From: a virus
IMG/VR virus record: IMGVR_UViG_3300025520_000001
Coordinates: 1-64,000 of that record
Strand: one strand, 5' to 3'
DNA length: 64,000 nt
In this document: in pieces, positions 42,528 through 57,876 of the stretch
How positions within the stretch are numbered: the first letter of the stretch is position 1
How the letters are laid out: each line of letters begins with the position of its first letter
Translations under genes and position numbers: made by a program
Notes under the pieces: generated by a model
Databases searched by the model: none
Told to the model about the DNA's origin: nothing
Seen by the model: the letters and a program-made list of their open reading frames with translations, nothing else

Positions 42528-42544
42528 GACCAATGCTTTCTTTG

Positions 42545-42644
42545 TGGAGAAGCCGGGACTCGAACCCGGTTCAATCGCCGCTAACTATGCCGTAACCCAG
42601 CATTGCCCTTTCTGCGAGGCGATTACAGCGCTGGGAGCTTCCCC
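42545..42644 (-). ncRNA. 100-nt tRNA-like RNA with G3:U70 acceptor and non-tRNA core
   Basis: GGGGAAG...CCGGGTTCGAGTCCCGG-CTTCTCC-A. Acceptor and T-arm are canonical. The 59-nt core has a 7-bp stem AATCGCC/GGCGATT and a possible pseudoknot CCCAGC/GCTGGG. Confidence 0.45.
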
Positions 42645-42652
42645 ATTACTAC

Positions 42653-42985
42653 TTACTTCTCGAACGGCAGACCACAACCGTATTCCTTCTCCTTCAGCCT
42701 GGTCAGTGTGTTCTGCACGACTGTCTTGTCGACTGGTGACAACTTCTTTTCATCGAGCATTGCGATGTTGTAGCAGAGCCCACGCAGCCTCGCGATGACC
42801 TTGAGATATTTCCTCTCAGTCTTTGACTTCGCCTTCTTCTTGGACTTTTTATGAGTCTTCGCTTCACATTTGCTACACACTTTACCGCTATTGCCAATGA
42901 AATACTTGGTCCCGACTTGTTTGCTACACACCGAGCAGTAGGGTGCTTCCCAGCCCTTGGTGTCAAAAACAGTTACTTTAATCAA
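42653..42985 (-). CDS. zinc-ribbon, Lys-rich hypothetical protein
   Basis: 110 aa. CSVCSKQ...CSKCEAK. Confidence 0.65.
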   Translation of the reverse strand: MIKVTVFDTKGWEAPYCSVCSKQVGTKYFIGNSGKVCSKCEAKTHKKSKKKAKSKTERKYLKVIARLRGLCYNIAMLDEKKLSPVDKTVVQNTLTRLKEKEYGCGLPFEK

Positions 42986-53567: not shown

Positions 53568-53966
53568 TTACTTTGTTCGCCGCGACTTCGTGGCTTCGTT
53601 GTACACAGTCAAGTCTCCGATGAGAGACTCGAACATCTGGCGCATGTTCGGGTTGTTCTCGAACATGCGATGTCCGCTGTTAAGCTTCGACCGAGCCTCT
53701 CCAACGAAGGTTTCAGCGGCCCAGTGTTCCACGCCGGTCAAGCGCTTGACAATCCGAAGGGCATCGCTAATACGCTCGTCGTTGAGAGCAGACAAGAGAT
53801 CAGCGATGTCTTCGGCATCGAGTTCTCGAGGCGGAGGAGGAAACATCTGGTCGAGCTTCTTCTTGAGCTCACGAAGCTCTTGCTCCTCAACGTCTGCGTG
53901 AATCTTGTCCTTGTTGACATCAACGATGGTGATGCTGTAAGTCTTCTTCTCGGCGATGGTGACCAT
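53568..53966 (-). CDS. paralog of 55525..55959 (diverged bL12-CTD-like segment)
   Basis: 132 aa. MVTIAEKKTYSITIV... and ISDALRIVKRLTGVEHWAAETFVGEA align with [12 protein letters not shown]... and [30 protein letters not shown]. Confidence 0.65.
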   Translation of the reverse strand: MVTIAEKKTYSITIVDVNKDKIHADVEEQELRELKKKLDQMFPPPPRELDAEDIADLLSALNDERISDALRIVKRLTGVEHWAAETFVGEARSKLNSGHRMFENNPNMRQMFESLIGDLTVYNEATKSRRTK

Positions 53967-54014
53967 GCCAAAACTCCTTTCTTTATCCAGCGTACATGTG
54001 AATGTACGTTCGGA

Positions 54015-54200
54015 TTAGTCTGCGCTTTCCCGGAAGTACTCGTCAATGCGTTTATTGTTTTGCTCAATAAACTTGTCAAGTACTTTATCCCTACTGTCTT
54101 TAGACCACAAAGATAGTAGGTGGCCGTTGCAGATTAGACAAGCAACAAGTCGCTCTTTTGTTAGGAGATCCGTGTAGGAGACTGGCTTTGCAATGCTCAC
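54015..54200 (-). CDS. LxLxS mini-protein family member
   Basis: ORF track 61 aa. RLVACLICNGHLLSLWSKDSRDKVLDKF. Confidence 0.5.
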   Translation of the reverse strand: MSIAKPVSYTDLLTKERLVACLICNGHLLSLWSKDSRDKVLDKFIEQNNKRIDEYFRESAD

Positions 54201-54201
54201 A

Positions 54202-54399
54202 CTATCTCCCGTTTAAGTGATTAATCCGAGCTTGCTCGAGGATCTCGTCAATGCCCTGCCTTTGACGAGAGTATAGGTCTTCGAGCTCTTTTCTTATTGT
54301 CCACAGACTCAAGCGATACCCGAGCAACACAAACTTAGCGAGGCATAGGTATTGCTCTGATAAGTGTGCTACAGTTGGACTTTTTTTAAGCAAGCTCAA
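54202..54399 (-). CDS. LxLxS mini-protein family member
   Basis: ORF track 65 aa. QYLCLAKFVLLGYRLSLWTIRKELEDLY. Confidence 0.5.
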   Translation of the reverse strand: MSLLKKSPTVAHLSEQYLCLAKFVLLGYRLSLWTIRKELEDLYSRQRQGIDEILEQARINHLNGR

Positions 54400-54739
54400 T
54401 TTCTACAGCCACCTTCATGCGAGGAGAGATGGACGAAAGAACATGAGAGACGCGGATGTTCTCAATTGGAGTTGGAGTGTACTTCTGGCCGACTAAGTAT
54501 TCCACGTATTCTACCGCTGCCGCTTGTGTGGGAAATGAGAAATACTGTATGGTCTCGATGTGCTCGGTATGCTCAGGATAGCCATGACCAGGCGCAACTC
54601 GAGAGCGCTCATCGCCTGGAACCCAGATGCTATCGGTTTTGTGGACAATTACTGCCCAATGTTCAGCAGTCGGAATGTCTTTGAGCGACCTTGCCGGCGT
54701 CACTGCGTACAGTTCGCGATCTCGTTGGTTGCTTACCAT
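54386..54739 (-). CDS. hypothetical protein
   Basis: ORF track 117 aa. Confidence 0.65.
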   Translation of the reverse strand: MVSNQRDRELYAVTPARSLKDIPTAEHWAVIVHKTDSIWVPGDERSRVAPGHGYPEHTEHIETIQYFSFPTQAAAVEYVEYLVGQKYTPTPIENIRVSHVLSSISPRMKVAVEIELA

Positions 54740-54921
54740 ATGCTGTGTTTCCTTGCTGCCTCTTTGAGGCGTGCTGCTGTTATATCCACCATTGCCTTTG
54801 TCAAGGCACTTTCGCTGAACAGTTTTAGTTTACAGCATTTCTTTAAGAAAAAGCGCACAAGGAAATAGCCTCGCACGAGACTATCTGGTGAATATTTGCG
54901 GCCTACGCTCGCACTGTGCAT
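54733..54921 (-). CDS. LxLxS mini-protein family member
   Basis: ORF track 62 aa. GYFLVRFFLKKCCKLKLFSESALTKAMVDI. Confidence 0.5.
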   Translation of the reverse strand: MHSASVGRKYSPDSLVRGYFLVRFFLKKCCKLKLFSESALTKAMVDITAARLKEAARKHSIW

Positions 54922-54922
54922 A

Positions 54923-55150
54923 TTAAAACTGCAGCTGAGGCACGAGCTCGAGAAAATCGTAGCTGTTCTGCACGATGTTCTCGTTGTCCACTACGAAGAC
55001 TGACAGCACATCGACCCATGCCAAACTAAGGTCTTGCGCCTGTTCAGGTTCAGTGGCTCCGCCATCGCGCCACGCGGTCACTTCAAACACCGTACCAGCC
55101 TTATATTCTTGACCGCGAGTTCCGGCTGCGACAGCATACACTTTCGGCAC
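54923..55150 (-). CDS. hypothetical protein
   Basis: ORF track 75 aa. Confidence 0.6.
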   Translation of the reverse strand: MPKVYAVAAGTRGQEYKAGTVFEVTAWRDGGATEPEQAQDLSLAWVDVLSVFVVDNENIVQNSYDFLELVPQLQF

Positions 55151-55243
55151 TTGAGACTCCCTCTTCCAAAGTTGTTTGTTGCACTAAAAGAACCATGCGT
55201 GGCTCTCGTTGAGAGTCTAGAACACCTGTGCCGCGCATGGTTG

Positions 55244-55357
55244 TTATACGTTCGGATACGCGCCAGTGTACCACCTAAACTTTTCATACCACGCTTCCTG
55301 TGCTATCTCTCTTTCAGTTTTACGAGAAATAAGTTCAAGCTTGCGAAGCACCGCCAT
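55244..55357 (-). CDS. LxLIS mini-protein family member, N-terminally short (37 aa)
   Basis: MAVLRKLELISRKTEREIAQEAWYEKFRWYTGAYPNV. The family-like sequence YDAVIDL continues upstream without a start codon. A CCGAAC box lies in its last codons. Confidence 0.25.
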   Translation of the reverse strand: MAVLRKLELISRKTEREIAQEAWYEKFRWYTGAYPNV

Positions 55358-55373
55358 CAAGTCTATGACGGCG

Positions 55374-55514
55374 TCATAATTTAGCGCGCGAAATCAGCAG
55401 GTCCCAGTATGCAACGCATACTTGCTTGTAGGTCTCAGGCTGCACAATATGTAGCTTCTTAAGCACTATCAAGAAGTATATAACTGTGCTCGGATGGTCG
55501 CGTAGTTGCAACAT
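55374..55514 (-). CDS. LxL mini-protein family member (46 aa)
   Basis: Hand-translated MLQLRDHPSTVIYFLIVLKKLHIVQPETYKQVCVAYWDLLISRAKL. Confidence 0.4.
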   Translation of the reverse strand: MLQLRDHPSTVIYFLIVLKKLHIVQPETYKQVCVAYWDLLISRAKL

Positions 55515-55524
55515 GAATCTTTAA

Positions 55525-55959
55525 TTAGTCGTTCAAGAAGTTCTTGACGGTGTTGAGGTACAGCCGGCGGTTGAAGAAGAGCTCCCTCACCGCCTCAACC
55601 CGAGGGTTGTCGAACAGAGACGTGTAGTTGCGACCGGAATTGGTATTCTTGAGGTGACCCACGAAGTACTCCACGAGGTCCTTGGCCTCCTTGAGGCCGA
55701 TGCGGTTGTCTCCGTTGATGGTGGCACCGCCAATCTCGCGGATCACCTTGATGCAGTCGATGTGGCTGGGGTTGTCGCTACCCAACATCGAGATGAGCTG
55801 ATCCAGCTTGACCTCGAGGTTGCGCTGCTCAACCGTGATCACGTTGGTCTGAGCAAACTCGTTCTGCAGCTGACGGAGGAGATCCAGCGCCTCAGCTTCG
55901 GCGAGTCGAAGTTCATGAGCGTTGAGGATGAGGGTGTACGAGCGCTTGAGCGTGACCAT
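55525..55959 (-). CDS. protein with ribosomal bL12 (L7/L12) C-terminal-domain-like segment
   Basis: 144 aa. [30 protein letters not shown] versus E. coli bL12 [21 protein letters not shown], with 10 identical consecutive residues ([10 protein letters not shown]). Confidence 0.7.
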   Translation of the reverse strand: [144 protein letters not shown]

Positions 55960-55988: not shown

Positions 55989-56010
55989 AAGAAAACAGAG
56001 GTCGCCTCTG
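55989..56010 (-). terminator. terminator-like hairpin inside a 5' leader (attenuator candidate)
   Basis: Minus-sense CAGAGG-CGA-CCTCTG followed by TTTTCTT. Lies between the CCGAAC box (56040) and the ATG at 55959. Confidence 0.45.
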
Positions 56011-56745: not shown

Positions 56746-57081
56746 TCACGATGCAGAAAAAACAGAGAGACCGCAGTATGTACTGCCATTAGTCCCATCG
56801 TAGTTGAAGAGTGGATGCCCCATCTCGCCCAAAGCCTGAGTAAATGCGTGTAGGTCTTCAATGAAGAATCGGAGCATAAAGGGGCTTAGTCCGTCAGTGC
56901 AGAAGTCGAAGCTCACCAAGATGCAGTCAGGAGTCGGGGAAAACTGGAAAGCTTGAGTCTCAAGAAACTTCGAATGCGTAGCGCGCTTCACATACTCACC
57001 CCATGTGATTACTTCGGCCTTGCCCAGCTTTGGCCACATGTGATTGAGGAGCGCAACTGCATTCTTGAGTTCTGCAAGCAT
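56746..57081 (-). CDS. hypothetical protein
   Basis: ORF track 111 aa; AAGGGGA RBS. First gene after cassette c. Confidence 0.7.
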   Translation of the reverse strand: MLAELKNAVALLNHMWPKLGKAEVITWGEYVKRATHSKFLETQAFQFSPTPDCILVSFDFCTDGLSPFMLRFFIEDLHAFTQALGEMGHPLFNYDGTNGSTYCGLSVFSAS

Positions 57082-57281: not shown

Positions 57282-57662
57282 TCACTTCTTTTCGTTAAGG
57301 AGCTCGAAGAACTGCTTTGCTCCGTCTTCCTTCGAGATGATGCCTGCGTCGACCGCCAGCTTGATGAGCTGGAACTTGTCGTTGGGCGTCCCGCTCGAGG
57401 CCGGCGCCTTCTGCTTGGGGTTCACCCACGACTCGATGAGGCACGTCGGCTGCCGGCCGACGATGTAGTTGAGCGGATTGCTGAACGCGCGGGTTCCCGG
57501 GCGGATGCTCCAACGACCCTGCTGGAGCCAACCCATCATGATCTCGCCCACCTTCTTGCGCTGCTCATCGGTGATGACGAGGTTGCCGCGCACAGGCGCG
57601 TGGCCGAGGACCTGCTGAAGGGCGGTGCGGAGAGCGTCCTGCTGCGAATTGAACTTGTCCAT
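57282..57662 (-). CDS. diverged NW[LV]RKDKR-family paralog
   Basis: ATG at 57662 with AAAGGA upstream. VITDEQRKKVGEIMMGWLQQG and LNYIVGRQPTCLIESWVNPKQK parallel the family blocks. Confidence 0.65.
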   Translation of the reverse strand: MDKFNSQQDALRTALQQVLGHAPVRGNLVITDEQRKKVGEIMMGWLQQGRWSIRPGTRAFSNPLNYIVGRQPTCLIESWVNPKQKAPASSGTPNDKFQLIKLAVDAGIISKEDGAKQFFELLNEKK

Positions 57663-57876
57663 GGTAGTTTCCTTTTTTGTCAACTTTAAGTGGGAACCAA
57701 TTTCCCATCTCGTATCGACAGGTGAATATATGTTCGGATTAGTTCTTCACCTGTAGTTCGACAGCATTATCACTTCTTGTACTTATTCAACAGTACGGCA
57801 CGTGTTTAGTTCCTGATAATGGCGGGACTGGCGAGAGCAAAGAGAGCGGTGAAGGAGCCGATGAGATAGAAGGCGA

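Follow-up and report, generated by a model that had tools for sequence, protein, structure and literature searches.

Copies of ribosomal protein genes are known from phages. Virus-encoded proteins that carry a bL12 domain have already been described, with examples from the Ralstonia phage RSB3, the roseophage DSS3P2 and the Salmonella phage FSL SP-076 (Mizuno et al., 2019, Nat Commun 10:752; PMC6375957). These proteins often lack the N-terminal domain, are often embedded in larger polypeptides, and occur in varied genomic contexts (PMC6375957). Here, we analyzed the first 64 kb (referred to below as the window) of IMGVR_UViG_3300025520_000001, a complete viral contig of 172,623 bp with direct terminal repeats, and more specifically two small genes on its minus strand, P0001 and P0002. 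A first-pass annotation of the window had presented these genes as paralogs, both carrying a segment that resembles the C-terminal domain of the ribosomal protein bL12. We find that the likeness holds for P0001 only, that it is genuine and restricted to a single hairpin equivalent to helices alpha4 and alpha5 of bL12, and that this hairpin keeps the residues with which bL12 contacts translation factors.

In nuclear magnetic resonance titrations, EF4 and EF-G touch the bL12 C-terminal domain at residues 66-70 and 80-85, and the contact with uL11 is made by K95 and by the cleft between alpha4 and alpha6 (PMC3505967).

P0001 and Its Family

Both open reading frames (ORFs) were recovered on the minus strand where they had first been annotated, and both quoted peptides are found in them. 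The start codon of P0001 is preceded by a Shine-Dalgarno-like site, GAAAGG. An exhaustive HMMER and profile search among billions of proteins returned a P0001 family of four sequence clusters of 144-153 amino acids (aa). The three other clusters, represented by P0003, P0005, and P0006, have lengths of 150-153 aa, are 32-35% identical to P0001 and can be aligned with it end to end. Gene order is also preserved: the window genes coding for 133, 111, and 144 aa, the last being P0001, correspond to genes coding for 140, 115, and 150 aa on the metagenomic contig that carries P0003 (L003). P0005 and a P0003-type gene lie together on one 5.7-kb contig, so that at least two family copies are present in a related phage, and in related phages both P0003 and P0005 have a neighbouring gene coding for 151 aa. 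The P0001 gene is real and conserved, and its small family is confined to a clade of uncultured large phages. Megablast and tblastn searches against 50,697 phage records gave no match for either P0001 or P0002. Scans of IMG/VR for relatives brought up only one contig, L002, which has a motif in common with P0001 and does not belong to the family. P0004, a repeat protein of 1857 aa, was considered as a family relative and set aside as a spurious match.

A bL12-Like Hairpin in P0001

As references for the bL12 C-terminal domain we used Pfam PF00542 (67 positions, cut-off 25.9 bits) and NCBIfam TIGR00855 (125 positions, cut-off 84.4 bits). Taken as a single sequence, P0001 stays under both curated cut-offs. 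PF00542 aligns residues 63-101 with profile positions 9-39 of 67 at 18.7 bits (E = 0.0022), TIGR00855 covers its positions 65-101 of 125 at 18.2 bits, and phmmer against PDB chains reaches an E-value of only about 1.3 (Thermotoga bL12). Among the relatives, P0005 scores 13.2 bits with PF00542 and P0003 has no match. A six-frame scan of the whole phage genome with the same profile found a single place, at 55654-55773 (model positions 9-40 of 67, 18.3 bits). From the single-sequence scores one might suspect a chance resemblance, and the comparison of profiles speaks firmly against it. The hhalign reference alignment consisted of four genuine bL12 proteins, the products of ordinary bacterial rplL genes (L004-L007) from a metagenome scan. 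The four-member profile of the P0001 family matches this alignment with a probability of 96.2% (E = 2.6e-9), and the hairpin alone, when the comparison is split, matches it with a score of 47.6 over 32 columns (E = 1e-8). Moreover, ten contiguous residues of P0001 are exactly those of the bL12 consensus, and the motif is kept in relatives from other samples. With E-values between 1e-8 and 3e-10, the profile-profile comparisons effectively refute a chance origin, which we regard as excluded.

The other parts of P0001 gave no comparable signal. In the split comparisons, the N-terminal helix matched the bL12 N-terminal domain with a score of 16.1 (P = 0.006, probability 6%), and the C-terminal tail of the family matched the beta2-alpha6-beta3 region with a score of 5.8 (P = 0.67). 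PF16320, which represents the bL12 N-terminal domain, matches nothing in the phage genome at E ≤ 10, and it is positive in 13 of 14 control genomes. Because the split hhalign comparisons and the PF00542 and PF16320 scans place the signal in the hairpin only, the similarity to bL12 is genuine but, judged from these alignments, limited to helices alpha4-alpha5, that is, to 31-32 columns.

Several of the first-pass claims can be read against these results. The bL12-like segment in P0001 is upheld beyond chance, at profile-level E-values of 1e-8 to 1e-9. The statement that neither protein has the bL12 N-terminal domain agrees with the genome-wide absence of PF16320, and it is likewise borne out that the two genes are not simply copies of a ribosomal protein gene. 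The insertion within the hairpin had been given as six residues and has to be corrected: both the HMMER and the hhalign alignments place eight residues, ATINGDNR, between the two helices. The corresponding insertion has about eight residues in P0003 and five in P0005 and P0006.

Conservation of the Factor-Contact Residues

Nine of the 22 columns that are invariant in the family fall within the hairpin (I67, D68, I70, K71, R74, L89, E91, A92, and D94). They align to V66, A67, I69, K70, R73, L80, E82, A83, and D85 of E. coli bL12, and seven of the nine (I70, K71, R74, L89, E91, A92, and D94) are also invariant in true bL12, where they correspond to I69, K70, R73, L80, E82, A83, and D85. An eighth, I67, takes the place of bL12 V66, within the contact stretch 66-70. 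The two stretches that contact factors, 66-70 and 80-85, read IDCIK and LKEAKD in P0001. The retained piece thus matches the translation-factor contact surface of bL12, as the first-pass annotation had supposed for the P0001 segment. From its sequence, P0001 is a protein that keeps the factor-contact stretches and has no detectable uL11-contact region or stalk anchor.

Predicted Structure of P0001

An AlphaFold model of P0001 built with the four family sequences has a mean predicted local distance difference test (pLDDT) value of 73 and a predicted template modelling (pTM) score of 0.62, with pLDDT values of 80-91 over residues 41-100; from the single sequence the pLDDT is 50, too poor for use. 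The model contains helices at residues 5-16, 21-36, 43-59, 66-77, 89-104, and 119-143, and no strand of three or more residues. Its sole beta element is a tiny bridge in the inserted loop (residues 79-85). Helix 43-59 occupies the place of bL12 beta1, and the long helix 119-143 ends the protein.

A Foldseek search of the PDB with this model, with a best E of 0.28, and a VIA-align comparison with 48,161 chains, with a best Z of 5.5, yielded no bL12 and nothing beyond helical bundles and hairpins of a generic kind. For a motif as short and local as this one neither search is informative, and a missing match does not rule out a fold. In the ESM Atlas there were no feature matches for P0001 or P0002, and the structural neighbours were generic, with template modelling scores of at most 0.47. 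The model argues against the presence of the bL12 alpha/beta domain in P0001 and is compatible with the likeness of the hairpin itself. The first-pass annotation had named the absence of a bL12 C-terminal fold from the predicted structure as grounds for rejecting its reading, and by that measure such a fold is unsupported: the predicted protein is all-helical, bL12 is not among its fold matches, and the likeness is confined to a hairpin of about 32 residues. A predicted complex between residues 38-144 of P0001 and the G domain of E. coli EF-Tu had a score of 0.02, where the mark is 0.32, and counts neither way.

The Hairpin in Other Proteins

The same hairpin is found outside the P0001 family. 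One example is P0007, a bacterial protein of 240 aa with three tandem hairpin copies, encoded on a contig of a metagenome-assembled genome (L008, 4001-4723, plus strand). The IMG/VR contig L002 carries a viral ORF of 146 aa whose match exceeds the Pfam cut-off and spans only profile positions 5-36. The hairpin is also present in phrog_26927, phrog_23470, phrog_35727, phrog_5819, and phrog_2546 and in NCBIfam NF005269 ("hypothetical protein"), all of unknown function, as well as in hypothetical proteins of the Streptomyces phages Evy and Targaryen and in a "ribosomal protein" of the Dinoroseobacter phage R7L. An alignment of this module, made from the three P0007 repeats and the L002 protein, is matched by the P0001 family profile with 96.8% probability (hhalign, E = 2.9e-10, score 55.6, 31 columns). 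Direct matches of P0001 to PHROG families are weak (E 0.02-0.2).

Next to P0007, and divergently oriented from it, lies a two-component system made of a histidine kinase and a response regulator. We also noticed that several records filed as phages, among them OR846596.1, OR844998.1, and CAKLQH020000005.1, match rplL over nearly its full length, from residue 1 to residue 81 of bL12. These look like host DNA or contamination and not phage bL12 genes.

Possible Role of P0001

With neither a stalk anchor nor the uL11 contact, P0001 would not be able to serve as a stalk subunit, and if its hairpin is functional it would have to act off the ribosome. We tentatively consider P0001 to be an off-ribosome protein that displays the factor-docking surface of bL12, a putative binder of GTPase G domains. 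The hairpin surface would have been kept because docking to the G domains of translational GTPases persists (helix D of EF-Tu, G' of EF-G, IF2, RF3), and it would be presented on an all-helical scaffold that is not that of bL12. P0001 might then work as a free adaptor or competitor, tethering or diverting a factor, and not as a component of the stalk. As a proposal, factor binding is plausible, and for P0001 only. A bolder version of this proposal, which we hold to be rather unlikely in its full extent, sees the alpha4-alpha5 hairpin as a portable GTPase docking tag that phages graft onto their proteins. P0001 would be an early capturer of EF-Tu, EF-G, IF2, or RF3, and P0002 would have lost or changed this specificity. 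The factor would be captured away from the stalk, with the effect of biasing host translation or of supplying a phage complex.

A number of points weigh against a factor-binding role. On the ribosome, the interaction of bL12 with factors depends on multivalency and on uL11, and P0001 has neither. EF-Tu is very abundant, which makes simple titration implausible. The insertion of 5-8 residues in the loop could change the angle between the two helices, and P0003 reads PLPEARD, with two lysines lost. Since I70, L89, and A92 correspond to residues that pack in the core of bL12, their conservation may be structural. The AlphaFold model that provides the scaffold rests on four sequences only. Finally, the affinity of the bL12 C-terminal domain for factors is itself weak, with a dissociation constant of 0.1-0.4 mM (PMC3505967).

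The main alternative is that the hairpin is a sturdy two-helix block of a common three-helix mini-domain, reused by many phage and bacterial proteins to bind some other partner or as plain scaffold, and that P0001 is unconnected with translation. We regard it as a doubtful explanation, but one that several observations fit: the module recurs in settings that are unrelated and of unknown function (the PHROG families, NF005269, P0007, and the L002 ORF), its match with P0001 is no weaker than that of true bL12 (55.6 vs. 47.6), and fold searches yield only generic helical hairpins and bundles. The surface speaks against this alternative. The charged equivalents of K70, R73, E82, and D85 are invariant, both in a family of about 33% identity and across unrelated scaffolds, which argues for a conserved binding partner, and the only known partner of this hairpin surface is the G domain of translational GTPases (PMC3505967). 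A quite different possibility is that the P0001 family is a strongly diverged full-length bL12 in which what is left of the N-terminal helix still provides attachment to the stalk, so that phage-modified ribosomes result. Against full-length bL12, hhalign does give a collinear alignment over 76 columns, pairing an L..EA..L...L..eF helix of the family with the main helix of the N-terminal domain, and one peptide of the FSL SP-076 bL12-domain protein was detected by mass spectrometry in ribosome fractions (PMC6375957). The score of 16.1 for that helix (P = 0.006, 6%), however, lies in the range of 15-17 that unrelated ORFs reached in a separate calibration with the whole-family profile, and PF16320 is blank throughout the genome. 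The first bL12 helix is absent, as is the beta2-alpha6-beta3 region with its uL11 contact, K95 (PMC3505967), and a tagged phage bL12-domain protein failed as a handle for ribosome purification (PMC6375957). We consider a stalk variant of this kind very improbable. A remnant of the bL12 N-terminal domain in P0001 was rejected as unproven after the split hhalign comparison and the PF16320 scan.

The P0001 family and the hairpin-only modules offer a simple test case for whether the minimal GTPase-binding surface of bL12 is sufficient and whether phages redirect translation factors with it. If the hairpin binds another partner, the lesson would be that the label "ribosomal protein L7/L12" should not be given to such proteins.

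P0002 and Its Relation to P0001

P0002 is an orphan with a ribosome-binding site, AAAGGAG, upstream of its gene. No homolog was found in a word-indexed search of a collection of 5.8 billion proteins, in IMG/VR or in the phage records. The first-pass annotation had read a diverged version of the bL12 segment in this protein. We could measure no such similarity: P0002 has no Pfam match to bL12 at E ≤ 10, hhalign gives 0.6%, and PF00542 finds nothing there in the genome scan. The two proteins said to carry the segment therefore become one, and, on these comparisons, P0002 should not be called bL12-like.

Whether the two genes are paralogs is a separate matter, and here the earlier claim is weakly supported. 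Direct comparison does not show it. BLASTP of P0001 against P0002 gives nothing significant (E = 2.5), and in hmmsearch of the 1373 genome ORFs with family profiles P0002 obtains 7.2-8.5 bits (E 0.1-0.3). When the profile is built without P0001, P0002 is the best non-self ORF of the 1373, at 8.5 bits (E = 0.1), and the next ORF follows at 8.1 bits. The support comes from hhalign, in which P0002 matches the P0001 family profile over residues 1-80 with a probability of 28-60% (P = 1e-4 to 6e-4). With the profile lacking P0001, it reaches 27.8, vs. a maximum of 16.8 among 260 random genome ORFs of similar size. P0002 aligns in register from its first residue onward, and the alignment closes in a conservatively substituted alpha4, where P0002 has D, L, R, K, and G at the family positions D68, I70, K71, R74, and G78. 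The alpha5 signature is gone.

We favor the interpretation that P0002 is probably an old, strongly diverged paralog of P0001 over the first 80 or so residues, without the bL12 motif. Having lost the alpha5 signature, it probably does not have the putative activity of P0001. It is also conceivable, if somewhat less than probable, that P0002 is unrelated, and that two small helical early proteins share the MVT start and a weak profile match by coincidence. Such a coincidence would agree with the BLASTP result, with hmmsearch scores of 7-8.5 bits that are about level with the ORF at 8.1 bits, and with an hhalign probability of 28-60%, obtained for a protein for which searches yielded no homolog from which to build a profile of its own. 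In addition, P0002 was originally chosen for these same surface features, so that the test is partly non-independent. The score of 27.8, beyond anything reached by the 260 random ORFs, the register kept from the first residue and the conservative end of the alignment in alpha4 (D68, L70, R71, K74, and G78) are harder to reconcile with chance, as is the fact that both genes lie behind the same rare promoter-like box.

Regulatory Elements and Genomic Context

The features of the locus are collected in Table 1. The box has the form ACTAAnCCGAACrTAnA... and is matched five times in the window, vs. 0.07 expected. Under a strict definition the entire 172-kb genome contains five copies, always on the minus strand and between 48622 and 58733. 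It is common to P0001, P0002 and a few neighbouring small genes, within a block of orphan genes. It is also found on L003, 29 nt upstream of P0003; the copies on that contig, at 52-71 and 965-984, precede two orthologous genes. It is likely that this box represents a phage-specific class of promoter, and since P0001 and P0002 each stand behind it, the two genes are probably regulated as one class. A GC stem with a T-run after it lies downstream of this box and ahead of the P0001 start codon; it may be a leader terminator or attenuator. The stem is missing upstream of P0002 and of P0003.

Table 1. Positions of P0001, P0002, their sequence features and neighbouring genes in the window.
Feature	Position	Strand	Basis or remark
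P0001 gene	55525..55959	-	ORF and translation; 144 aa plus stop
bL12 alpha4-alpha5-like hairpin of P0001, residues 62-100	55660..55776	-	PF00542, TIGR00855 and hhalign; only bL12-like part
Insertion ATINGDNR, residues 79-86, between the hairpin helices	55702..55725	-	Eight residues; gap in HMMER and hhalign alignments to bL12
GC stem cagagg-cga-cctctg followed by T-run	55991..56010	-	Read from sequence; between box and P0001 start
Promoter-like box upstream of P0001	56025..56044	-	Sequence match
P0002 gene	53568..53966	-	ORF and translation; 132 aa plus stop; orphan
Promoter-like box upstream of P0002	53994..54013	-	Sequence match; 27 nt before ATG
61-aa ORF	54015-54200	-	L.LW motif
65-aa ORF	54202-54399	-	L.LW motif
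117-aa ORF	54386-54739	-	phrog_29558
Five tandem mini-ORFs, 43-49 aa	56065-56734	-	Between P0001 and the 111-aa gene
111-aa gene	56746-57081	-	Upstream of P0001
133-aa gene	57282-57683	-	Upstream of P0001
Candidate tmRNA-like gene, 149 nt	42544-42692	-	ARAGORN

Compared with isolated phages, the ribonucleotide reductase and DNA ligase of this phage show no more than 35-39% identity, and the isolates in question all have Proteobacteria as hosts. Between 48 and 59 kb the genome consists of consecutive small genes on the minus strand, almost none of which has a family match, and no clue to function came from any of the neighbours of P0001 and P0002 that we examined. The 117-aa ORF is the sole neighbour with a family match (phrog_29558, unknown function, E = 6.5e-11).

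Upstream of P0001, the five tandem mini-ORFs have in common a hydrophobic residue followed by W...DLgLI. The 111-aa and 133-aa genes beyond them, both lacking a family match, have syntenic counterparts on L003, which code for 115 aa (494-841) and 140 aa (70-492), respectively. The 111-aa and 115-aa proteins are similar by eye, both having a motif CTD and tails ending in ...F.A-type residues. Upstream of P0002, the adjacent 61-aa and 65-aa ORFs both combine the L.LW motif with similar helical tails and may be another small pair of paralogs. Elsewhere in the genome, ARAGORN predicts ten transfer RNA genes at 11.5-47.2 kb and an eleventh at 141.9 kb, beyond the window. The same program also proposes a candidate transfer-messenger RNA (tmRNA)-like gene with the tag ASQKGQCWVTA, which could be a false positive.

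Comparison with Known Systems

With the bacterial bL12 C-terminal domain (PDB 1CTF, 1DD3), P0001 has in common the sequence of alpha4 and alpha5, including the run of ten identical residues. It differs in all that surrounds them: the N-terminal domain for dimerisation and uL10 binding, the hinge, beta1-beta3, and alpha6 of bacterial bL12 have no recognizable counterpart in P0001, whose predicted fold is all-helical and which has an insertion in the turn between the helices.

A similar two-helix motif is reported from another fold, the N-terminal domain of EF-Ts. Wieden, Wintermeyer and Rodnina reportedly described in 2001 (J Mol Evol 52:129) a motif occurring in both EF-Ts and L7/12 and proposed it as a contact for EF-Tu, and Kothe et al. 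are said to have placed helix D of EF-Tu with helices 4 and 5 of L7/12 in 2004; we take both only as leads that such a hairpin may work in more than one fold. The sequence of P0001 is specifically bL12-like, and a Pfam scan of the protein gave no EF-Ts or UBA family.

The hairpin-only modules, including NF005269/PRK06771, resemble P0001 in that the two bL12 helices serve them as a compact, portable element without the rest of the bL12 fold, in phage and bacterial proteins of unknown function. They keep the canonical tight turn, with about six residues from the alpha4 Arg to the alpha5 Leu, whereas the P0001 family has 5-8 residues more, and the helices that flank the hairpin are different in the two groups.

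The closest described relatives in kind are the phage proteins of Mizuno et al. Like P0001, they resemble the bL12 C-terminal domain at profile level and keep the factor-contact residues. They conserve, however, the residues that contact uL11 as well as those that contact EF-G and EF-Tu, and the uL11 part has no counterpart in P0001. P0001 is further distinguished by its restriction to alpha4-alpha5, its loop insertion, its score below the Pfam cut-off and its membership in an orphan family of four clusters. By these sequence features, P0001 is an insertion-bearing, hairpin-only variant within the known class of phage bL12-like proteins.

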